From Anaerovoracaceae bacterium (GTDB taxonomy: Bacteria > Bacillota > Clostridia > Peptostreptococcales > Anaerovoracaceae): a stretch of DNA of 64,000 nt. The notes below the pieces were generated by a model that ran no database searches, was not told where the DNA came from, and was given only the letters and a program-made list of their open reading frames with translations. This document shows positions 1,385 to 59,194 of the stretch, piece after piece (the stretch's first letter is position 1; every line of letters starts with the position of its first letter). The DNA lies in contig JBJETA010000005.1 of the NCBI GenBank assembly GCA_051883075.1, positions 8,126 through 72,125 of the forward strand, given 5' to 3'. A program made the position numbers and the translations under genes.

Positions 1385-2584
1385 TCATAACTCTTTTTCA
1401 AAATGTCTTTTTTCTTTTTCCTTATACATCGCCTGATCCGCTCTGTGATATGCATCCTCAAAGCCCTGTGAACAACCGGAAAATACATACCCTGCACTGC
1501 CGGAAACCGGTTTTTCTTCATCAAGCTCAGGCAGGTAAATTTTAAGTTTATCGTATATTTCCGTCTGTACGTTTTTAAGTTCTTCTTCTGAAGAAACCCC
1601 TTTTAACAGCAACATGAACTCATCGCCGCCGACTCTTCCCGCAATGCCGTTCCTTTTTTCAAGAACAGAACACAGAATATTCCCCGCGGCTTTGAGCACC
1701 TTATCTCCTGTGGCGTGTCCGTAAGTATCGTTGACGGTTTTGAAATCATCCAGATCAATCATAAACAAACCCAGTTTTTCATCCTGATGGCTTTCCATGT
1801 ATTCTTTTGATAATGTACAGAAATTTCCCTTGTTTAAAAGCCCCGTAAGCTCATCTACCGCAGCCTGCTTCTTCTCCATGGTAATGTCCGTCAGAACCGC
1901 AAATATATGTGCGTCCCCTAAGCCATCCTTGATAGCTCTCATGTTTTCAGACACCCATACATAATGCCCTTCTTTGTGGCGAATTCTGTAAACAACAGTT
2001 GCTGAAGATAGGTCTTTCAAAATGCTCCTGATAGCAGTTACAAAGATTTCCCTGTCACGGTCATCATAGCAAATCTCCACATATTTCCCATTGAACAGTG
2101 ACTGCATATCATCAAAATCATAGCCTGTAATATCTGTAAATCCTTCACTTACATATACAACCCCAAAGCTGGGCTTTGTAACACAGTGATGCACTCCTCC
2201 GGGGATACTGTTAACATACCCTTCCAAAGACATATTTAAATCGGAAATCTGATTCTTTTTATCTTTTTCAACAGTTTTATACAGCACCACAAGATTATAA
2301 TTGCTTATTTTTACAAATACCGCACCCCAGAACAGAATCTGCACAACAATAGCCGCATTGGCAGAATGCAAAAGATTTTTTGAAATCCATAAAACAGTTA
2401 TTGCCACATATCCTGCAAAAAATCCGAGTAAAAGAATTGTGTAAAACTCCCCCATTTTCTGTAGTCTGGGATATACCTCTCCCGCTTCTCCCAACACAAA
2501 CAGCCTATGCAGTTTGCTGACCGCATAGACTAAATTAAAAAACATCAGCACACATGCTGCGATTAAAAACAGAAAATTAATCAT
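1385..2584 (-). CDS. Membrane-anchored PAS/GGDEF diguanylate cyclase
   Basis: N-terminal TM helices, a central PAS-like segment and a C-terminal GGDEF domain (RVGGDEFMLLL). Confidence 0.85.
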   Translation of the reverse strand: MINFLFLIAACVLMFFNLVYAVSKLHRLFVLGEAGEVYPRLQKMGEFYTILLLGFFAGYVAITVLWISKNLLHSANAAIVVQILFWGAVFVKISNYNLVVLYKTVEKDKKNQISDLNMSLEGYVNSIPGGVHHCVTKPSFGVVYVSEGFTDITGYDFDDMQSLFNGKYVEICYDDRDREIFVTAIRSILKDLSSATVVYRIRHKEGHYVWVSENMRAIKDGLGDAHIFAVLTDITMEKKQAAVDELTGLLNKGNFCTLSKEYMESHQDEKLGLFMIDLDDFKTVNDTYGHATGDKVLKAAGNILCSVLEKRNGIAGRVGGDEFMLLLKGVSSEEELKNVQTEIYDKLKIYLPELDEEKPVSGSAGYVFSGCSQGFEDAYHRADQAMYKEKEKRHFEKEL

Positions 2585-3473
2585 TCTTTTTCCTCATTTC
2601 CTTCTCCGGCAATTCACTGGCAACAGCCGCGCAAAGTATAAGCACTGCTCCTGCTGCTTCCGCCACACTCATTCCTTCATGTAAAATCATCACTGAAAGT
2701 ATTATCGCCACAACAGGGTCGATGTAGCTGAACAACGCTATTGTCTGCGCTTTAAGCTTTGCCATGGAACCGAAAAACAGAACATAGGCAAAGCCCGTGT
2801 GAAAGATTCCCACAATCAAAACCATACATATTATAAAGGCTGACACGGTAATGTCCGTCATGCTCTCTGCATACAGTACATACGGAACAACAACCAGCCC
2901 TGCCGAACCAAGCTGGACAGCCGTTTTTTCATAAGGCGAAATATTTTTTATAAATTTATTTAAAATAACAACACAGGCATAAAAAACAGCTGCTCCCAAT
3001 CCGCAGAGCACACCCTTAAGTTCACCGATTCCTCCAAAATCCGCACCGTACACTCCCGATACAAGTACCATACCTGCCAGTGCCGCAGCAACACAGCAAA
3101 GCTTTTTCACAGAAATATTTTCCCTGAAAAGCAGCGGTGATGCCAGAATCACAAATACAGGCGCCATATAGTAACATAGTGTAGCTACTGCCACTGAGGT
3201 ATACCTGTATGCTTCAAAAAGCAGAATCCAGTTAAATCCAATCAGTGCTCCCGATACCGGAAGAAGCGGCATATTTCCTTTTATATTTACCCAGTTTATG
3301 TTTTTTCCCTTCAGTTTTACAAAAAAAATTATAAAAAGCATGCCGATAAAGCCCCTTGCCATGGCAATCACTCCTGAGGGCAGAGGTATATATCTTCTGA
3401 AAATCCCTATAGTTCCAAATATGAACATGGACATTATAAAGGCTGCTTTTGCTTTGTTCTCTTCCTTATTCAT
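2577..3473 (-). CDS. EamA/DMT family transporter
   Basis: About 10 predicted TM helices with the duplicated EamA-type architecture. Its stop overlaps the downstream GGDEF gene start by 8 nt. Confidence 0.85.
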   Translation of the reverse strand: MNKEENKAKAAFIMSMFIFGTIGIFRRYIPLPSGVIAMARGFIGMLFIIFFVKLKGKNINWVNIKGNMPLLPVSGALIGFNWILLFEAYRYTSVAVATLCYYMAPVFVILASPLLFRENISVKKLCCVAAALAGMVLVSGVYGADFGGIGELKGVLCGLGAAVFYACVVILNKFIKNISPYEKTAVQLGSAGLVVVPYVLYAESMTDITVSAFIICMVLIVGIFHTGFAYVLFFGSMAKLKAQTIALFSYIDPVVAIILSVMILHEGMSVAEAAGAVLILCAAVASELPEKEMRKKND

Positions 3474-3643
3474 ACTTTTAATCCTGTCAGTTTCTTTTGC
3501 TTTAGAACTTTATCCTATCATAAGAGTATGCTGTTTACAAGGATTTGTATTTTTGTTTATTTGTTCCGCCGTCAGATTTTTAAAACAGACATATTTTCCC
3601 TGTCTGTATGCAGAAAAAATTTCTGTTTTTCTAAAAAATATGC

Positions 3644-3672
3644 TTTACATCCAAAAATCAAAGTTGTATAAT
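3644..3672 (+). promoter_or_regulatory. Sigma-A type promoter of the aro leader/operon
   Basis: -35 TTTACA (3644-3649), 17-nt spacer, -10 TATAAT (3667-3672). Confidence 0.5.
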
Positions 3673-3742
3673 CAAAACATATTAATTCACTTTTTTAGTG
3701 AATTTTAACAAAAAAAATGATTTTTACGAAAGAGGAACGTCC

Positions 3743-3859
3743 ATGAAAAAGTTATTAAACTGGGCAGTTGAATATTTATATTTTAGCTTTACTTTTTATT
3801 TTAAGGGTAAGGCTTATTTGGATTTCACTGAAAATACGGGCGTTTATGCAGGCGCATAG
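3743..3859 (+). CDS. Putative aromatic-rich leader peptide of the aro operon (38 aa, MKKLLNWAVEYLYFSFTFYFKGKAYLDFTENTGVYAGA)
   Basis: AGAGGA Shine-Dalgarno lies 6 nt before ATG 3743. The peptide has 11 aromatic residues of 38 (1 W, 5 Y, 5 F), with 7 of 10 in the run YLYFSFTFYF. It lies between a promoter and a strong terminator directly upstream of aroF. It is absent from the ORF track because it is under 60 aa. Confidence 0.55.
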   Translation: MKKLLNWAVEYLYFSFTFYFKGKAYLDFTENTGVYAGA

Positions 3860-3885
3860 AAATTGCGCATATAAAAAAGACACTC

Positions 3886-3920
3886 AGTCCGCAGGTGAAA
3901 TTCACTTGCGGACTTTTTTA
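3886..3920 (+). terminator. Intrinsic terminator (attenuator) in the aro operon leader
   Basis: 13-bp stem AGTCCGCAGGTGA (3886-3898) / TCACTTGCGGACT (3902-3914) with a 3-nt loop, followed by TTTTTTATT. It sits 58 nt upstream of the aroF start. Confidence 0.75.
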
Positions 3921-3977
3921 TTAATCTAAAATCTATTAAAATGTATACATTAGCTAATGTGCAAACGGAGGTAAATC

Positions 3978-4988
3978 ATGGTCATTATTTTAAAGGACAA
4001 CCCTAATCAGAAACAACTGGACAACTTGCTGGACTGGCTGAAAAGCATGGATCTCGGCATTCATATGAGTAAAGGGGAGCACACAACACTTATCGGACTT
4101 ATCGGAGACACTTCCTGTGTGGATATGGAGCTTATCAACGCTCTTGATATCGTAGAAACCGTAAAGAGAATACAGGAGCCTTATAAAAATGCAAATAAGA
4201 AGTTTCATTCAGATCCTACTGTTATAGATGTAGCAGGCGTAAAAATCGGGGGCGGCAGCTTCCAGATTATTGCAGGACCTTGTTCCGTAGAATCAAAAGA
4301 GCAGATTTGTGAGGTTGCCATGGATGTAAAAGCGGCAGGAGCATCACTGTACAGAGGCGGTGCTTTTAAGCCAAGAACTTCTCCTTATGCATTCCAGGGG
4401 ATGAGAGAAGAAGGCATTAAGCTTCTGCTTGAAGCCAAAAAGGCTTCGGGACTCCCTATCGTAACCGAAATCATGGATATTTCCCATCTTTCACTGTTTG
4501 AAGATGTTGATGTTATCCAGGTTGGCGCAAGAAATATGCAGAACTTTGAACTTTTAAAGGAGCTTGGAACTATCAATAAGCCTATCCTTTTAAAGAGAGG
4601 ACTTGCAAATACTCTTCAGGAATTCCTTATGAGTGCCGAATACATCATGGCCGGAGGAAATGAAAATGTTATTCTTTGCGAAAGAGGTATCAGAACCTTT
4701 GAAACAGCAACAAGAAATACTCTTGACCTTGCAAGTGTGCCTCTTCTGAAGTCCATGACACATCTTCCTGTCATCGTTGACCCAAGTCATGCAACAGGTA
4801 TTTCACAGCTTGTTAAGCCTATGGCACTTGCAGCTGCAGCCTGCGGAGCTGACGGTCTTATGATTGAAGTACACAATGACCCGGCACACGCTCTCTGCGA
4901 CGGTGCACAGTCACTTACACCTGAAGCTTTTAAGGACGTTGCAGCAGCTGTAAAGGCAATCCTGCCATACTGCTACAAACCGGAATAA
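3978..4988 (+). CDS. aroF: 3-deoxy-7-phosphoheptulonate (DAHP) synthase, type I-beta with N-terminal regulatory extension
   Basis: KDSA/DAHP synthase I-beta core (GPCSVES, KPRTSPY, RGIRTFE, DPSH). The roughly 70-aa N-terminal extension resembles Thermotoga-type enzymes. GGAGG RBS present. Confidence 0.9.
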   Translation: MVIILKDNPNQKQLDNLLDWLKSMDLGIHMSKGEHTTLIGLIGDTSCVDMELINALDIVETVKRIQEPYKNANKKFHSDPTVIDVAGVKIGGGSFQIIAGPCSVESKEQICEVAMDVKAAGASLYRGGAFKPRTSPYAFQGMREEGIKLLLEAKKASGLPIVTEIMDISHLSLFEDVDVIQVGARNMQNFELLKELGTINKPILLKRGLANTLQEFLMSAEYIMAGGNENVILCERGIRTFETATRNTLDLASVPLLKSMTHLPVIVDPSHATGISQLVKPMALAAAACGADGLMIEVHNDPAHALCDGAQSLTPEAFKDVAAAVKAILPYCYKPE

Positions 4989-5004
4989 TAGAAGGAGAAC
5001 TGAT

Positions 5005-5859
5005 ATGCACACATCTATGAATATCGGAATCGTTGGACTTGGTCTTATAGGCGGTTCCATGGCAAAAGCATTGAAAGAAAACACACCTCATACAGTATGG
5101 GGTACTGATATAAAACAGGACATTATCAAGAAGGCGATTCTTGTAAATGCCATTGATGAAGAGCTTACGGAAGAAAAAATCCCTGAGTGCGATATACTTA
5201 TCGTTGCGCTGTTTCCTCAGGACACGGTGGATTTTGTAAAGCAGCATGCGGATATTATAAGGAAAGATTCTGTAGTCATGGACTGCTGCGGTGTAAAGGA
5301 GGTTGTATGCCGTGAGCTTGAGCCTCTGGCTGCTGAAAAGGGGTTTATCTTTATGGGAGCACACCCTATGGCAGGGCTTGCGCATGCAGGTTTTGCACAC
5401 TCAAAAAAGGCACTTTTCAACAATGCTTCTATGGTTCTCACCCCTGCAAAAGGTACGAAAATCGAAACCGTGCAAATGATTAAGCTTCTGTGTGTGACTA
5501 TTGGTTTTACCAATACTCAGATATCAACTCCGGAAGAACACGACAGAATTATTGCTTTCACATCACAGCTTGCCCATGTTGTATCAAGCGCATACATCAA
5601 GAGCCCTTCAGCTCTTGAGCATAAGGGTTTTTCTGCGGGCAGCTATAAAGATATGACCCGTGTCGCAAAGCTGAACGAATATATGTGGACAGAGCTGTTT
5701 CTTGACAATCCCGAATTTCTGGCAGAAGAAATTGACGGTATTATAGAAAGGCTGAAGGAATACAGCGATGCCATCAAGGCAAACGACAGCAAGACTCTCT
5801 GCGAACTGCTTAAGGACGGCAGGGAGCGCAAAATGATTATTGACGGTGAAAAATTCTAA
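5005..5859 (+). CDS. tyrA: Prephenate dehydrogenase
   Basis: N-terminal Rossmann motif IVGLGLIGGS, HPMAG motif, and operon context. Confidence 0.88.
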   Translation: MHTSMNIGIVGLGLIGGSMAKALKENTPHTVWGTDIKQDIIKKAILVNAIDEELTEEKIPECDILIVALFPQDTVDFVKQHADIIRKDSVVMDCCGVKEVVCRELEPLAAEKGFIFMGAHPMAGLAHAGFAHSKKALFNNASMVLTPAKGTKIETVQMIKLLCVTIGFTNTQISTPEEHDRIIAFTSQLAHVVSSAYIKSPSALEHKGFSAGSYKDMTRVAKLNEYMWTELFLDNPEFLAEEIDGIIERLKEYSDAIKANDSKTLCELLKDGRERKMIIDGEKF

Positions 5860-5899
5860 TGCTTCCGGACCGGCAGCTCCGGTAAAAGAAAGGATTTAA

Positions 5900-6979
5900 A
5901 TGGAAAAGGTACAGGTAAACGCATCAAAAAAATATGATATATATATAGGAAACAATCTTCTTGCTCATGCAGGAGAGTATATCTCCCGGGTTCATGAGCC
6001 ATGCAAAGCATTTATCGTGACGGATAAAACCGTCAAAGAGCTTTACGCCGACACTGTATCGGCCTCTCTTTCAGCCTCAGGATTTGAAGTTTATGACTTT
6101 GCTTTTGATGCCGGTGAAGGTTCGAAAAACATGAAAACCATAAGCAATATCGTCGAAGAAATGGCTGAAAAGCAGTTTACCAGAGGTGACCTGATTGTCG
6201 CTCTCGGCGGCGGCATTGCAGGCGATGTGGCAGGCTTTGCAGCAGCTGTGTTTCTGAGAGGTATTCCTTTTGTCCAGATTCCGACCACCCTGCTTGCGGC
6301 TGTTGACTCATCTGTCGGCGGTAAGACAGGTGTAAATCTGAAATCGGGGAAAAATCTGGCCGGCGCTTTCTGGCAGCCTTCTCTGGTGCTTTGTGACTGT
6401 GATACATTTAAGACGCTGCCTTATAAAACTTTTCTGGACGGCATAGCCGAAGCAGTTAAGTACGGAGTCATCTCTGATGCCGGACTTTTCAACAGGCTCT
6501 ATGAGGCAGGGGAAAAGCTGTATTCAGAGCAGGATAACCTCATCGGCATAGTAAAACGATGTGTGTCCATAAAGGCGGATATCGTCATGGAGGATGAACG
6601 TGATACGGGACTCAGACAGCTTTTAAATCTGGGACATACTATAGGACACGCTATAGAAAAGTCGAGCGGCTACGAAATAACTCACGGACATGCAGTGGCT
6701 CTCGGTATGCTTATGATTTCAAAAGCATGTGTTGATATGGGTATCTGCAAAGCAGAGTGCCACAGCCGGATTTCCGATATTTTGAAAAGATTTGGATTCC
6801 CGTCCTCCTGTCCGTTTCCTGCGGAGGTTCTGCTGGATGCCATGCTGAAAGACAAGAAGCGTTCAGGAAGCACTATCACTCTTGTTCTTCCAAAGGAAAT
6901 CGGCAGATGTGTTCTGGAAAAGGTGCCTGTTGAAAGACTTATACAGTTTATCGGCAATGAACAATCCGTCAGCATCTAA
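5900..6979 (+). CDS. aroB: 3-dehydroquinate synthase
   Basis: GGGIAGDVAGFAAA nucleotide loop, PTTLLAAVDSSVGGKTGVN, and HGHAVA metal-ligand motif. Confidence 0.95.
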   Translation: MEKVQVNASKKYDIYIGNNLLAHAGEYISRVHEPCKAFIVTDKTVKELYADTVSASLSASGFEVYDFAFDAGEGSKNMKTISNIVEEMAEKQFTRGDLIVALGGGIAGDVAGFAAAVFLRGIPFVQIPTTLLAAVDSSVGGKTGVNLKSGKNLAGAFWQPSLVLCDCDTFKTLPYKTFLDGIAEAVKYGVISDAGLFNRLYEAGEKLYSEQDNLIGIVKRCVSIKADIVMEDERDTGLRQLLNLGHTIGHAIEKSSGYEITHGHAVALGMLMISKACVDMGICKAECHSRISDILKRFGFPSSCPFPAEVLLDAMLKDKKRSGSTITLVLPKEIGRCVLEKVPVERLIQFIGNEQSVSI

Positions 6980-7077
6980 TAACATAATTAAAAGCAAGAT
7001 TTAAAAACAAGAACTGATATCAAAAGTTAATAACAATATACTAATTGTTAATCGTATATATACGATAGGAGATGCTT

Positions 7078-8517
7078 ATGAACGTACAGATAAACCCAAA
7101 GCCGCTTGGCGGCAGGGTTAAGGCAATAGCTTCAAAATCCCATGCCCACAGGCTTTTGCTGGGCGCAGCCCTTTGCGGCATTGGAAACGGACATACCGGT
7201 TCCTGCAAGGTGCATATCTCGGAAATGAATGAAGATCTGGAGGCTACAAAAAACTGCATAGCCCGGCTCAAGCAAACAGAGCCAGTTTTCTTCTGCAACG
7301 AAAGCGGATCGACACTCCGTTTTTTCCTGCCGATTGCTATGGCTCTGAAGGAAAGGGCTGAGTTCTGGGGTGCAGGCAGACTGCCGGAAAGGCCGCTTTC
7401 TCCTCTGAAGGAGGAGATGGAGCGCCACGGTTGCGTGTTCGGCTCAGACTCTTCCGGAACAGGCGCTCCGGAGCTGCCCCCTCAGGCACGGCACATCATA
7501 ACGGCGGAGGGCAGGCTCCAAAGCGGCCGCTACAGCCTTGCCGGCAACATCAGCTCCCAGTACATCACAGGGCTGCTGTTCGCACTGCCGCTTCTTGACG
7601 GCGACAGCATACTCGACATAACTTCGCCCCTCGAGTCTGCAGGCTATGTGGATCTGACTCTCGAAGTGCTGAAGCTTTTCGGAATCCGGATTCAGATATT
7701 TACCTGTCAGCCGATTCCGGGAACCCAGCTTCCGGGAAATCCGACTCCGGAAAACCGGGATTCGGAAAATCAGCCCACTGATTTCGGACTGCCTGTGTCA
7801 ACCGACTTGCAAACCCTGCAATCGGCTGATGCACAATCATGCAACACACAGTCGGACTCCGCACAGCCTAACGCAAATATACGATTTGTCATAAAGGGCG
7901 GACAGAGCTACACCTCTCCGGGCGAAGTTTCAGCCGAAGGTGACTGGTCCAATGCGGCATTCTGGATTGCCGCAGACCTGCTGGGTCGGACGCGAACCCC
8001 GGAATCCGCTGATATATCCTGTACCGGCGTGGAATGTACCGGTTTGAATCCGGATTCATCACAGGGCGACAAACGAATTGTCGAATTTGCGGACATTATC
8101 AAGGAAAACGTGAATACTTCGGAGATTTTACAATTTGATGTATCGCAGGTACCTGACCTGGTACCTATACTCTCTGTTATGTGCTGCTGCCGCAGAGGCG
8201 GAACTTCAAAAATCGTAAATGCAGGCAGGCTCCGCATAAAAGAAAGCGACAGACTTGCAACGGTTCACGAAATGCTTGAAGCTCTGGGTGCTGAAATTGA
8301 AGAAGGCGAAGACAGTCTTACCATATACGGAAAAGGCAGTCTTACAGGCGGCACCGTGGACGGACACAATGACCACCGAATAGTTATGGCGGCTGCCGCA
8401 TCCTCAGTCCTATGCCGGGAACCCGTTACTATACTGGGGGCAGAGGCGGTAAACAAATCCTATCCTGCTTTCTGGTCAGACTTCAGAAGTCTGGGAGGTG
8501 AATATATTGAGCTTTAA
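7078..8517 (+). CDS. aroA: 3-phosphoshikimate 1-carboxyvinyltransferase (EPSP synthase) with internal low-complexity insertions
   Basis: EPSPS motifs are present (KSHAHR, SSQYITGLLFALP, EGDWSNAAF, RLRIKESDRL). The start is set at the second ATG (7078), 7 nt after GGAG. The protein is about 50-60 aa longer than typical because of an insertion near nt 7690-7880. Confidence 0.9.
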   Translation: MNVQINPKPLGGRVKAIASKSHAHRLLLGAALCGIGNGHTGSCKVHISEMNEDLEATKNCIARLKQTEPVFFCNESGSTLRFFLPIAMALKERAEFWGAGRLPERPLSPLKEEMERHGCVFGSDSSGTGAPELPPQARHIITAEGRLQSGRYSLAGNISSQYITGLLFALPLLDGDSILDITSPLESAGYVDLTLEVLKLFGIRIQIFTCQPIPGTQLPGNPTPENRDSENQPTDFGLPVSTDLQTLQSADAQSCNTQSDSAQPNANIRFVIKGGQSYTSPGEVSAEGDWSNAAFWIAADLLGRTRTPESADISCTGVECTGLNPDSSQGDKRIVEFADIIKENVNTSEILQFDVSQVPDLVPILSVMCCCRRGGTSKIVNAGRLRIKESDRLATVHEMLEALGAEIEEGEDSLTIYGKGSLTGGTVDGHNDHRIVMAAAASSVLCREPVTILGAEAVNKSYPAFWSDFRSLGGEYIEL

Positions 8518-9634
8518 GACAGTTTCATCAACATTTGGACACAATATCAAAATAACAATTGCAGGCGGCTCCCACGAACCTGAGATTTCAGTTGTTGCAG
8601 AGGGATTCCCCGCAGATGAAAAAATAGATTTGGACAGACTTCAGACATTTATGTCCAGAAGAGCTCCCGGGAACAGTATTTTTGCAACGCCGCGAAAGGA
8701 AGCGGATGTTCCCGTATTTGAATCGGGATTCCGTGCACCGGAACCGGAGGACAGCAGAATCAGAATTACAGACGGCAGTCCTTTGAAAGCCGTAATCAGA
8801 AACACAAATACCCGCTCTTCGGACTATTCAAATCTCCGGGATATACCCAGACCCGCACATGCAGACTTTACCGCCGCTGCAAGATACGGAAATACGGTAA
8901 ACATGTCGGGCGGCGGTCCGTTTTCCGCAAGAATGACTGCTCCGCTTTGCATTGCAGGCGGTATTGCTCTTCAGATTCTTGAAAGGAAAGGCATTCACAT
9001 AGGCGCCCATATTTATTCTGTTGGCGCTGTAAGAGACATGGCATTTGATCCTGTTTCTACAGAAGCTTCCGGGCTTCAGGCTTTGAAAGAACTTGACTTT
9101 CCTGTTCTCGACCACGACAGGGGCGAAGCCATGAAGCAGGAAATACTTGCTGCTAAGAAGGACGAGGATTCTGTCGGCGGCATCATTGAAGCAATCGTTC
9201 TGGGACTTCCAAAAGGATATGGCGGAGCCATGTATGACGGTATCGAAAGCCGGCTCGCACCTGTTCTCTTCGGTATTCCTGCCGTAAAGGGCATAGAGTT
9301 CGGAAACGGCTTTGCGGCTTCCACGCTTCGCGGCTCAGAAAACAACGATGCATTTATTATAAAAAACGGGGAAATCAGGACCGCCACCAACAACCACGGC
9401 GGTATCCTGGGCGGAATATCTTCAGGGATGCCTGTTATCTGCCGCCTGGCATTTAAGCCTACCCCTTCCATAGGCAGGGAACAGCAGTCTGTAAGCATGA
9501 GCCGTATGGAAGCTGCACCCCTGAAAATCCGGGGCAGGCATGACCCATGTGTTGCAGTCCGTGCAGTTCCTATCGTGGAAGCGGCACTTGCAGTGTGTAT
9601 TCTGGATCTGCTTCTGGAAAATCCGGAGTTTTGA
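8498..9634 (+). CDS. aroC: Chorismate synthase (divergent N-terminal signature)
   Basis: C-terminal signature RGRHDPCVAVRAVPIVEA and PRPAHAD. The N-terminal motif reads GGSHEPEI rather than the usual GESHG. The true start may be TTG 8507, 8 nt after GGAGG. It overlaps the aroA 3' end. Confidence 0.88.
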   Translation: MNILSFKTVSSTFGHNIKITIAGGSHEPEISVVAEGFPADEKIDLDRLQTFMSRRAPGNSIFATPRKEADVPVFESGFRAPEPEDSRIRITDGSPLKAVIRNTNTRSSDYSNLRDIPRPAHADFTAAARYGNTVNMSGGGPFSARMTAPLCIAGGIALQILERKGIHIGAHIYSVGAVRDMAFDPVSTEASGLQALKELDFPVLDHDRGEAMKQEILAAKKDEDSVGGIIEAIVLGLPKGYGGAMYDGIESRLAPVLFGIPAVKGIEFGNGFAASTLRGSENNDAFIIKNGEIRTATNNHGGILGGISSGMPVICRLAFKPTPSIGREQQSVSMSRMEAAPLKIRGRHDPCVAVRAVPIVEAALAVCILDLLLENPEF

Positions 9635-9674
9635 CCATTAAATTTGATAAAATACCTTTAGGAGGCTGACAACT

Positions 9675-10814
9675 ATGTCTTTAAACAATATAAGAGAAGA
9701 AATTGATAATATCGATAAACAGTTAGTTGACCTGTTTGTAAAACGTATGGACATGGCAAAAAAGGTTGCCGAAGAAAAGAAAGCTGCAGGTTCTCCCGTT
9801 TTAAACGTCCAGCGCGAAAGGGAAATTCTTACCAGAGTTTCGGAACAGGCGGGAGAAGAGCTTGACGGTTATGTAAGGCTTCTTTACAACACTATATTTG
9901 ATATAAGCCGTTCCCATCAGAACCGTATCATTCACAAAGACAGTCCCATCAAAGAAAAAATTGAAGCGGCGCTGAAGAATACACCTGCAATGTTTCCCTC
10001 CAAGGCAACCGTTGCATGCCAGGGTGTGGAGGGGGCTTATTCCCAGCTTGCTGCAGAGAAGCTTTTTGCAGTTCCTTCCATTATGTATTTCCAGAACTTT
10101 GAAAGTGTCTTCAATGCAGTAGCAAAAGGTCTTTGCAGATACGGCATCCTTCCTATTGAGAACAGTTCCCACGGTTCTGTCGGAGAAGTATATGATTTAA
10201 TGAAGCATTACAACTTCCATATAGCCAAGTGTATCAAGCTCCGCATATCCCACAAGCTGCTTGCAAAGCCCGGCACAAAGCTTGAGGATATTACTGAAAT
10301 AGTCTCACACGAACAGGCTCTCGGTCAGTGTGCCGACTTTATCAAAAGTCTGAAAGGCGTAAAAATTACCGTATGTGAAAATACGGCGGTTGCAGCTGAA
10401 ACTGTTGCAGCCAGCGGCAGAAACGACATAGCGGCTATATCCTCAGCCGACTGTGCAAGACTTTACGGTCTTTCTGTCATCAGAGATGATATTCAGATAA
10501 GTGACAACAATTACACACGTTTTATCTGTATCTCCAAGGATCTTGAAATATATCCGGGTGCAAACAAAATAAGCCTTATGCTTTCACTTCCTCATCGTCC
10601 TATGTCGCTTTACAATATGCTTGCACGCTTCTCAACACTGGGTCTGAATCTTACAAAGCTTGAATCACGCCCTATCCCGGGAAGCGATTTCGAGTTTATG
10701 TTTTACTTTGATATGGAAGCTTCCGTAGTTTCCTCGGATGTAGTCAGCCTGCTGGGTGAACTTTCAGATCAGCCTGAGTTGTTTGTTTTCCTTGGAAACT
10801 ACATCGAAAACTAA
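9675..10814 (+). CDS. pheA: Bifunctional chorismate mutase / prephenate dehydratase
   Basis: N-terminal CM type-2 helix (IREEIDNIDKQLVDLFVKRM), PDT domain and C-terminal ACT domain. GGAGG RBS present. Confidence 0.9.
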   Translation: MSLNNIREEIDNIDKQLVDLFVKRMDMAKKVAEEKKAAGSPVLNVQREREILTRVSEQAGEELDGYVRLLYNTIFDISRSHQNRIIHKDSPIKEKIEAALKNTPAMFPSKATVACQGVEGAYSQLAAEKLFAVPSIMYFQNFESVFNAVAKGLCRYGILPIENSSHGSVGEVYDLMKHYNFHIAKCIKLRISHKLLAKPGTKLEDITEIVSHEQALGQCADFIKSLKGVKITVCENTAVAAETVAASGRNDIAAISSADCARLYGLSVIRDDIQISDNNYTRFICISKDLEIYPGANKISLMLSLPHRPMSLYNMLARFSTLGLNLTKLESRPIPGSDFEFMFYFDMEASVVSSDVVSLLGELSDQPELFVFLGNYIEN

Positions 10815-10848
10815 TTCGGACAAAATGCCGGAAAAGAAAGGACTTTAT

Positions 10849-11640
10849 ATGGAATACGGTTTAATAGGAGAAAAGCTCGGTCACAGCTACTCAAAAATAA
10901 TACACGAAAAGCTGGGTGCCTATGCCTACGATTTAAAGCCTCTTGCCAAAGACGAGCTGGAGGCCTTCATGCAGGCACGGGACTTTAAAGGTCTGAATGT
11001 GACCATTCCCTATAAGCAGGCAGTTATACCCTTCTGTGACGAGGTTTCCGGACTGGCAAGGGAAATAGGTGCGGTAAATACTCTTTACTTCAACGAAAAA
11101 GGAAGACTGTGCGGTACAAATACGGATTATCTCGGATTTCTGTATGCCATGGACGAAGCAGGCATATCTGTTGCAGATAAAACAGTAGTAATACTGGGCG
11201 ACGGAGCGACCCACAAAACCATAAAAAAGGCTGTTTCGGACAGAGGCGCCAAAGAAATCATAGTTGCCTCACGCAAAGCGGATTCACCGCAGAAGCTTGA
11301 TACTTGCACAAAAGTCAATTACAGGGACCTGCCGGATTATGCCTACGCTGAAATCGTAATAAATTCAACTCCTGTGGGCATGTATCCCAACACGGAGGGT
11401 TGCCCTGCGGATCTGAGCATGTTTACCGAATGTCAGGGAGTCTTTGATGTGATATACAACCCTTATCACACCAACTTTATCCGTCAGGCAATAGCCCTTG
11501 ATATCCCTTTTGCAAGCGGTCTTTCCATGCTTGTTGCCCAGGCAACCGCAGCCGCAGGTTTTTTCACAGGTAGCGGAAATTTTTACGAAAAAGAAAATAA
11601 ACGCATAATTTCAGAATTGAAATCAGCGTTTACAAAATAA
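10849..11640 (+). CDS. aroE: Shikimate dehydrogenase
   Basis: YGLIGEKLGHSYS, GLNVTIPYK, NTDYLGF, and a GDGAT Rossmann variant. The start is set at ATG 10849 (RBS AAAGGA). The ORF track's 10756 start overlaps pheA, and ATG 10825 is an alternative. Confidence 0.85.
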   Translation: MEYGLIGEKLGHSYSKIIHEKLGAYAYDLKPLAKDELEAFMQARDFKGLNVTIPYKQAVIPFCDEVSGLAREIGAVNTLYFNEKGRLCGTNTDYLGFLYAMDEAGISVADKTVVILGDGATHKTIKKAVSDRGAKEIIVASRKADSPQKLDTCTKVNYRDLPDYAYAEIVINSTPVGMYPNTEGCPADLSMFTECQGVFDVIYNPYHTNFIRQAIALDIPFASGLSMLVAQATAAAGFFTGSGNFYEKENKRIISELKSAFTK

Positions 11641-59059: not shown

Positions 59060-59194
59060 ATGAAGCAGACTTATCAGCCAAAGAAGAGACAGAGATCCAA
59101 GGAACATGGATTCAGAAAAAGAATGAGCACAAAGAACGGTAGAAATGTATTGAAGAGAAGAAGAGCAAGAGGCAGAAAGAAGCTGACAGCATAG
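59060..59194 (+). CDS. rpmH: 50S ribosomal protein L34
   Basis: Translates to [44 protein letters not shown], with a GGAGG RBS. It is absent from the ORF track because it is under 60 aa. Confidence 0.95.

Follow-up and report, generated by a model that had tools for sequence, protein, structure and literature searches.

A probable leader-peptide attenuator with mixed Phe and Tyr codons upstream of the aroF operon in an Anaerovoracaceae genome and in related Clostridia

In a 64,000-nt stretch of a metagenome-assembled genome (MAG) of an Anaerovoracaceae bacterium (contig JBJETA010000005.1, assembly GCA_051883075.1; this stretch is called the window, and all coordinates are positions in it), an operon for aromatic amino acid synthesis is preceded by a leader that very probably acts as a ribosome-mediated (leader-peptide) transcription attenuator. 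As judged from its sequence and from folding in silico, it would most likely sense charged tRNA-Phe and/or tRNA-Tyr and control read-through into the genes from aroF to aroE. What was observed are the sequence elements of the leader, their conservation in related genomes, the alternative pairings of its RNA, and the covariation that accompanies these pairings. The same reading had been put forward in an earlier note on this DNA, and it holds up: a short open reading frame (ORF), a cluster of Phe/Tyr codons, an intrinsic terminator, an antiterminator exclusive of that terminator, and a lack of room for a second promoter were all found in the window and are conserved in its relatives.

The promoter, the ORF with its Shine-Dalgarno (SD) sequence, the aromatic run, the terminator, and the alternative pairing all lie where the earlier note had placed them (Table 1). 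Upstream of aroF, a scan of 3300–4300 returned a single promoter-like site, that at 3644–3672 (the other match was inside aroF); its −35 and −10 hexamers are both kept in an alignment with Aminipila terrae, A. butyrica, and one Aminipila MAG, and the transcript would start at ∼3679–3680. The leader ORF encodes the peptide MKKLLNWAVEYLYFSFTFYFKGKAYLDFTENTGVYAGA, in which 11 of 38 residues are aromatic; it has no Pfam match and was not present in the protein collection searched. The choice of Phe and Tyr codons matches the products of the operon, which holds both pheA and tyrA: DAHP synthase with an N-terminal ferredoxin-like (FXD) regulatory domain, prephenate dehydrogenase, and chorismate mutase/prephenate dehydratase (CM-PDT) are encoded together with aroB, aroA, aroC, and aroE. 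The RNA from 3679 to 3925 folds at z = −6.6 versus dinucleotide shuffles, and the ATG of aroF, at 3978, follows a GGAGG at 3967–3971.

Leader ORFs of this kind are found before aroF far beyond the window. The sample comprised 80 aroF loci at 64–77% protein identity, 79 of them usable, mostly from MAGs and labelled Oscillospiraceae, Lachnospiraceae, Acutalibacteraceae, Christensenellales-type taxa, and Anaerovoracaceae, plus Angelakisella massiliensis. When an ATG-started short ORF with at least six aromatic residues (F/Y/W) in ten was sought within 300 nt 5′ of aroF, 62 of the 79 loci were positive, against 11 of 1,580 dinucleotide shuffles (0.7%), none of the 79 reverse complements, and 2 of 1,905 other 300-nt windows from these same loci. 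An SD-like motif, detected by a simple scan, precedes most of these candidates. The comparison of regions upstream of aroF orthologues, which the earlier note had suggested, thus speaks for a conserved mini-ORF and a conserved Phe/Tyr run. In the ORF-negative loci, aroF mostly lies right behind another gene; several of them are labelled as non-Clostridial bins, and one is cut by a contig end. By AroF, the closest cultured relatives of the source MAG are Aminipila, Clostridium aminobutyricum, Anaerovorax, Zhenpiania, and Ihubacter. In a second sample of eight closer Anaerovoracaceae relatives (80–90% AroF identity, six of them named species), the leader ORF was present in all eight, e.g., as MKNVISWAVEYFYFSFTFYFRSKAYLNFSANMGALV in A. 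terrae; the synteny aroF-tyrA-aroB-aroA is kept in these genomes, and in none of them had a gene been called in the gap 5′ of aroF.

The encoded peptides have lengths of 14–47 aa, with a median of 28. In 71 leaders, four Phe and four Tyr are the median content, at least two of each occur in 68, and Trp is rare. All that is kept among them is the richness in Phe and Tyr and the segments engaged in RNA pairing; the remaining peptide, its length, and its termini vary, and the aromatic run itself stays strictly periodic in its UUY/UAY codons as its order, its length, and the flanking sequence change. Because the peptides are otherwise free to differ, they bear the signature of a regulatory leader, not that of a functional protein. 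This touches on another explanation, by which the ORF would encode an independent small, aromatic-rich hydrophobic protein equipped with its own terminator, and aroF would be expressed from a separate promoter or through constitutive, leaky read-through. The peptide is indeed hydrophobic and well conserved inside Anaerovoracaceae, and in the window 63 nt separate the terminator from the aroF ATG. Yet outside the aromatic run and the pairing codons, neither sequence nor length is conserved over the wider sample, the element was found only 5′ of aroF, and no Pfam domain matches the peptide.

The position of the terminator bears on the same question. A simple finder detected a hairpin followed by a T-run 3′ of the leader ORF in 68 of the 74 relatives having such an ORF; it mis-picked or missed the terminators of L006, L008, L009, L019, L022, L047, L051, L053, and L054, and the covariance model described below later aligned terminators in all of these nine loci except L051. 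From the end of the terminator to the ATG of aroF, the relatives have a median of 35 nt and a minimum of 14 nt, which in Aminipila leaves room for the SD of aroF only, and in the window no promoter-like site was found in 3915–3977. Since these gaps cannot accommodate both a promoter and a 5′ untranslated region (5′-UTR), aroF in the relatives would have to be transcribed by read-through, and a terminator that is passed in this way is an attenuator, not the end of a separate gene. That the leader ORF is an independent gene is therefore very improbable.

The conserved nucleotides of the leader fall into four regions. Region 1, at the start of the aromatic run (consensus GCAGCUGAAUA plus aromatic codons, e.g., AGCUUUACC), resembles region 3, the 5′ arm of the terminator (GCAGUGAAAC), and region 2, which follows the run (GGUAAGGCU plus GUUUCGCUGC), resembles region 4, the 3′ arm of the terminator (CACUGCGG), so that 1:2, 2:3, and 3:4 pairings arise, which is the scheme of the trp paradigm. 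In the window, the 1:2 hairpin spans 3765–3830 (−17.3 kcal/mol; inner helix 3785–3796/3803–3814), and the 2:3 pairing of 3819–3830 with 3892–3904 amounts to between −13.5 and −14.3 kcal/mol, according to which stretches are compared. In the relatives, the GUUUCGCUGC part of region 2 finds its partner at the top of the 5′ arm of the terminator; the antiterminator that the earlier note had drawn from the window alone is thus the conserved one, and its pairing is kept via compensatory changes. RNAalifold recovers the inner 1:2 helix, and helices 1 and 2 of this hairpin have 74–91% of cells paired, again with compensatory changes. In a MAFFT alignment of 18 leaders, 83% of cells were paired in the OFF structure (region 2 with region 1), compared with 34–48% in slid controls; for the antiterminator (ON), it was 86.6% compared with 28–58%, and both sides had changed in 6 of 10 pairs. 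In 64 matches aligned by the covariance model, 87.8% of cells were paired in the OFF structure, with compensatory changes in 26 of 30 pairs overall and in 12 of 12 terminator pairs, but this alignment was fitted to the OFF structure, so these figures lean its way. The antiterminator, which is outside the model, had 79% of cells paired compared with 38–53% in controls. Without any alignment, the best duplex between a post-run segment and the terminator 5′ arm ranked above 95% of shuffles at 35 of the 64 loci, and region-2 segments form better duplexes with the terminator arm of their own locus than with arms taken from other loci (0 of 10,000 permutations reached the observed value). The leader region is AT-rich (GC content 0.36), and U-rich sequence readily yields Phe codons, which invites the view that a chance ORF happens to stand beside an ordinary terminator; this view is practically refuted, given that dozens of species-level genomes show the same combination of ORF, terminator, and the two alternative pairings, and that compensatory changes go with it.

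A further explanation accepts the terminator/antiterminator switch as real and has it set by a trans-acting factor on the leader RNA, be it an RNA-binding protein, uncharged tRNA, or a small molecule, the ORF being incidental or modulatory. Attenuation of the T-box, TRAP, or PyrR type is common in Firmicutes, the conserved blocks GCAGCUGAAUA, AGCUUUACC, GGUAAGGCU, and GUUUCGCUGC can be read as a binding platform, and the equilibrium fold of the leader is not switched by a ribosome mask alone (see below). At the gathering threshold, Rfam 15 gave no match of any kind on either strand of the 64 kb, no tRNA, riboswitch, or T-box included; nor was there a gathering-level match or a T-box 5′ of aroF in the 14 related loci that were searched. 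A T-box consists of a Stem I with a specifier codon and of the conserved T-box sequence in an antiterminator bulge; the T-box model (RF00230) gave no match at gathering or with E up to 10, no GGGUGGNACC-like sequence occurs in 3679–3977, and the window leader has no specifier loop. The remark in the earlier note that no T-box is visible is confirmed by these searches, and no riboswitch known to Rfam explains the leader instead. A TRAP site consists of 9–11 (G/U)AG triplets spaced by 2–3 nt; the six GAG/UAG triplets in 3679–3977 are scattered, with no two at TRAP spacing. At permissive thresholds, the only leader-type match was Trp_leader (RF00513), which scored 24.9 bits in E-value mode over 3480–4050, compared with a gathering score of 41; the aligned part was essentially the terminator, and membership was rejected. 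Leaders of the Phe, His, Thr, Leu, or leu/phe type were absent among the Rfam matches with E up to 10. As a separate observation, a cobalamin riboswitch lies ∼1 kb 5′ of the aroF leader of L007 (2968–3104, minus strand; 32.6 bits, just over its gathering score).

Besides lacking a T-box, a (G/U)AG array, and an Rfam family, the reading by a trans-acting factor has to contend with the ORF itself: an in-frame ATG, usually with an SD, opens a frame through the U-rich run at a frequency (62 of 79) that shuffles reach in 0.7% of cases, and the run keeps its codon periodicity while everything around it varies. Moreover, the conserved nucleotide blocks are fully accounted for by the 1:2, 2:3, and 3:4 pairings, and no aptamer-like unpaired core is left. 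Control by such a factor is accordingly improbable, if somewhat less so than an independent protein gene.

Attenuation by translation of the leader peptide is also what the distribution of the element suggests. A covariance model, R1, was built from 18 leaders including that of the window and searched in 89 sources. Plus-strand matches were obtained in 61 of them, all directly 5′ of aroF, and 43 of these were outside the seed; in the window, only the aro leader was matched. A scan of the 64 kb for amino-acid-run ORFs found nothing comparable, and the aro leader was the only such ORF that also matched the model. Weak minus-strand matches overlapping attenuator terminators were seen in L039 (3537–3639), L082 (2429–2555), and L019 (3936–4094), because palindromic terminator stems resemble terminators on both strands. 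In the sampled Clostridia, aroF is thus usually preceded by a predicted leader-peptide attenuator. A larger proposition is about as likely as not: the window leader would typify a large RNA/peptide family serving as the default control of shikimate/Phe/Tyr operons across several Clostridial orders, with two amino acids read by one mixed codon run. The orders concerned include Oscillospirales, Lachnospirales, Christensenellales, and Peptostreptococcales, and among the gut carriers are Faecalibacterium, Agathobacter, Ruminococcus, and Lawsonibacter. The family appears to be uncatalogued: no paper describing a Clostridial Phe/Tyr leader ahead of aroF was found in the searchable literature, from which most subscription journals are missing, so that this absence is no proof. 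One leader stands apart: L046, on a contig labelled Victivallales (a non-Clostridial bin), combines a leader ORF rich in Tyr and Phe with a terminator and with an antiterminator predicted to be strong (−25.4 kcal/mol, z −3.6), yet is without a covariance-model match; mis-binning, horizontal transfer, or an independent variant are possible explanations.

Table 1. Elements of the aro leader and its surroundings in the window.
Feature	Position	Strand	Remarks
Sigma-70-type promoter	3644–3672	+	−35 TTTACA 3644–3649, 17-nt spacer, −10 TATAAT 3667–3672; 11 of 12 consensus matches
SD sequence of leader ORF	3731–3736	+	AGAGGA, 6 nt before ATG
Leader peptide ORF	3743–3859	+	ATG 3743, TAG 3857–3859; 38 codons plus stop
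R1 match	3761–3920	+	117.9 bits, E ∼5e-23; only match in the window
Region 1, 5′ strand of anti-antiterminator	3765–3796	+	Outer part 3765–3778; inner part 3785–3796 (AGCUUUACUUUU, from codons of the aromatic run)
Regulatory codon run YLYFSFTFYF	3773–3802	+	Codons 11–20; Phe/Tyr 7 of 10; proposed stall site
Region 2	3803–3830	+	3803–3814 pairs with 3785–3796; 3819–3830 (UGGAUUUCACUG) pairs with region 1 (OFF) or 3892–3904 (ON)
Intrinsic terminator, putative attenuator (regions 3 and 4)	3886–3919	+	13-bp GC-rich stem 3886–3914, 3-nt loop, T-run to 3919; −20.9 kcal/mol
Antiterminator 3′ strand	3892–3904	+	CAGGUGAAAUUCA; within the terminator
Operon aroF-tyrA-aroB-aroA-aroC-pheA-aroE	3978–11640	+	Putatively regulated
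5′ hairpin	3684–3704	+	AAUUCACU-UUUUU-AGUGAAUU; accessory, lineage-specific; motif common to region 2 and terminator top
Spacer hairpin	3852–3868	+	GCGCA/UGCGC; encloses stop codon; inside antiterminator-closed loop
EamA-family transporter	2577–3473	−	Divergent from aro leader
aroA ORF	7072–8517	+	481 aa from first start codon
rpmH-like ORF	59060–59194	+	44 residues

The leader could operate in the following way. Transcription would start at ∼3679, and a ribosome would load at the leader ORF (3743). With Phe and Tyr plentiful, it would pass codons 11–20 and proceed to the stop codon at 3857, and region 1 (3765–3796) would re-pair with region 2 (3803–3830); once the 1:2 hairpin has formed, the terminator stem (3886–3914) with its U-run would be free to form, leaving a leader RNA of ∼240 nt. 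With Phe-tRNA or Tyr-tRNA scarce, the ribosome would stall within 3773–3802 and cover region 1, the freed segment 3819–3830 would pair with 3892–3904 as the latter emerges, and, the terminator stem being blocked, RNA polymerase would enter aroF. In the trp attenuator, the terminator is likewise more stable than the antiterminator, and the outcome is kinetic. Equilibrium folding, in which the terminator is expected to prevail for any device decided during transcription, is uninformative for a kinetic switch and was replaced by folds of the nascent RNA, in which RNA was available up to the terminator loop (3904 in the window) and ribosomes were represented by masks. Without a ribosome, or with one at the stop codon, the nascent RNA of the window was predicted to form the 1:2 hairpin; with the A-site on codon 13, 14, 16, 18, 19, or 20, 3819/3820–3829 paired with 3893–3904. 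Over 62 loci, at least six antiterminator pairs were predicted in 47 when the ribosome was stalled and in 14 when it stood at the stop codon (Wilcoxon p = 4e-8). The folding with and without masked ribosome footprints that the earlier note had recommended therefore yields a switch in nascent RNA, but not at equilibrium. These folds also speak to the worry about timing raised there, namely that a ribosome parked at the stop codon leaves 3819–3830 uncovered: the 1:2 hairpin (3765–3830) is predicted to recapture region 2, as region 1 re-pairs after the ribosome has passed, so that region 2 would be sequestered without being covered.

Several points weigh against this scheme. At equilibrium, the full-length leader keeps its terminator under every ribosome mask. 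Folds without any ribosome already show antiterminator pairs in 27 of the 62 loci, and with a ribosome at the start codon such pairs form in 38 of them, so that the discrimination by ribosome position in silico is statistical, not clean. The switch would need kinetically ordered folding and translation that keeps up with transcription, a coupling that is not to be assumed in Firmicutes. In the 64-sequence alignment, changes on both sides of the antiterminator were no commoner than in shuffles (312 of 500), so its covariation is modest. The window leader also holds aromatic codons within or after region 2 (Y25, F28, and Y35), and stalling at any of these would favour termination. Finally, dual sensing of Phe and Tyr is not assured: in Corynebacterium glutamicum, aroF is under attenuation control by a leader, aroR, with the codons Phe-Tyr-Phe (Neshat et al. 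2014, J Biotechnol 190:55, as described in PMC11802643), and, according to that description, read-through is raised under Phe limitation, whereas Tyr is without effect (PMC11802643).

The aroR leader is nonetheless the closest functional parallel, in that an ORF with Phe/Tyr codons stands before an operon starting with aroF and ribosome-mediated attenuation of transcription is the mode of control. It is experimentally supported, whereas the Clostridial leader is known here from its sequence and from in silico folds; it belongs to Actinobacteria and has only Phe-Tyr-Phe, compared with 5–9 aromatic codons in the Clostridial run. The two, set side by side by description, are most likely independent inventions. 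With the leaders of E. coli pheL-pheA, pheM-pheST, and trpL (Yanofsky 1981; Zurawski 1978; both as cited in PMC11802643), the window leader shares the four-region logic of 1:2, 2:3, and 3:4 pairings, the regulatory codons in region 1, and, for the phe leaders, the charging of tRNA-Phe as the signal, which for the window leader is a presumed one. These E. coli leaders are proteobacterial, and pheL concerns Phe only, whereas the Clostridial run mixes Phe and Tyr about equally, and the operon in the window, unlike the targets of the E. coli phe leaders, comprises the common pathway and both terminal branches. A mechanical difference follows from the geometry: region 2 of the window leader lies inside the ORF, with the stop codon 27 nt further on, so that region 2 would have to be sequestered by 1:2 re-pairing and not, as in E. 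coli, by ribosome occlusion.

Another aroF-linked element, the uORFC-13-1 motif, was described exclusively before aroF, from 24 sequences of Acholeplasma and unassigned environmental origin (Brewer et al. 2021, PMC8632094). It consists of promoter-like boxes, a ribosome-binding site, a start codon, and an upstream ORF (uORF) with one or more Phe codons in a U-run, followed by an intrinsic terminator, and its authors proposed that the speed of Phe incorporation is sensed (PMC8632094). The arrangement, a uORF with Phe codons directly before a terminator upstream of aroF, is the same in the window. Unlike the Clostridial run, the motif is said to code for "at least one" Phe, and no Tyr/Phe run is mentioned; on this comparison, made by description only, the two could be distant relatives. 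In Firmicutes, leader peptides of other specificity have been reported or predicted: His leaders in the B. cereus group, Peptostreptococcaceae, and Erysipelotrichales (PMC2965389, PMC9413887), a Leu-rich leader peptide of S. aureus ilv-leu (PMC5794164), and B. subtilis bmrB-bmrCD (PMC4191407). They have the phylum in common with the window leader, and also the principle, in which a terminator/antiterminator pair is combined with a short ORF and with stalling or regulatory codons; they differ in responding to other amino acids or to antibiotics, in preceding other operons, and in having unrelated sequences, none of them concerning aromatic biosynthesis. These leaders show that leader-peptide attenuation is feasible in Firmicutes. 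The earlier note's view that the mechanism is unusual for this clade is thus only partly right, since such attenuators had been reported or predicted in the phylum, and before aroF they are the usual arrangement in the Clostridia sampled. T-box and TRAP systems likewise take a terminator/antiterminator decision in a 5′ leader, with tRNA charging or the amino acid level as the signal; the window leader lacks the specifier loop, the T-box sequence, the (G/U)AG array, and an Rfam match. In Clostridioides difficile 630, the aroF 5′-UTR, which has no known riboregulator, was reported to contain a site of premature termination (Fuchs et al. 2021, PMC8237595). The C. difficile AroF is not among the 120 AroF homologues listed here, and the termination reported there may be due to the same device.

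The mechanism is a textbook one, and an analogous aroF leader is known from Corynebacterium; the value of the present family lies in its breadth and in annotation, not in a new principle. It would fill an annotation gap in an abundant group of anaerobes: in the eight closer relatives no gene had been called in the gap 5′ of aroF, and Rfam has no model for the element; R1, which picks out the family specifically, could be the starting point of a curated one. The family predicts how its carriers adjust the synthesis of aromatic amino acids, which bears on cross-feeding and on the aromatic metabolites of gut Clostridia, and it offers a natural test system for leader-peptide attenuation and for transcription–translation coupling in Clostridia. 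If the reading is true, the ubiquity of the family would imply that pause-synchronised coupling of transcription and translation is common in these organisms, in contrast to the Bacillus-derived view, in which Firmicutes rely on T-box, protein, and riboswitch attenuators as ribosomes trail behind RNA polymerase.

Two accessory hairpins of the window leader, both of which the earlier note had suspected of taking part, fared differently. The 5′ hairpin shares an 8-mer and its complement with 3821–3828 and 3894–3905, and one nascent-RNA fold opens the hairpin to pair with both. The Aminipila clade has preserved just its right half ("UUUUUUAGUGAA"), and Anaerovorax, Zhenpiania, and Ihubacter lack the hairpin; because no more than this half is retained, and that in the closest relatives, the 5′ hairpin is not a component of the conserved device. 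The underlying palindrome, AATTCACT-N5-AGTGAATT, was also considered as a DNA operator and rejected: it occurs once in the 64 kb, as chance allows, is unconserved outside the Aminipila clade, and lends no support to a transcription-factor regulon. The hairpin at the stop codon, in contrast, is one case of a frequent type, although its sequence is variable. In 16 of 61 leaders (mean z −0.94), the spacer that separates region 2 from the terminator is more stably folded than its shuffles, without sequence conservation, and spacer hairpins, often enclosing the stop codon of the leader, were noted in L004, L006, L008, L011, L017, L020, L057, L072, L081, L082, and L088. Such a hairpin would make the antiterminator-closed loop shorter.

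As to the surroundings of the leader, aroD is convergent to the aro operon. The EamA-family transporter on the other side has a sub-threshold match to the model of the aromatic amino acid exporter YddG (42 bits, cutoff 300), and in Aminipila relatives a GGDEF gene takes its place beside the aro leader. Within the operon, aroA of the window is longer, as read from its first start codon, than in relatives (404–439 aa), and EPSP-synthase models match it in two stretches (best 270–475); the start may be wrongly placed, or the N-terminal half may contain an insertion. Towards the other end of the window, the ORF at 59060–59194 resembles ribosomal protein L34 (rpmH), so that the right end of the window may be close to the replication origin.

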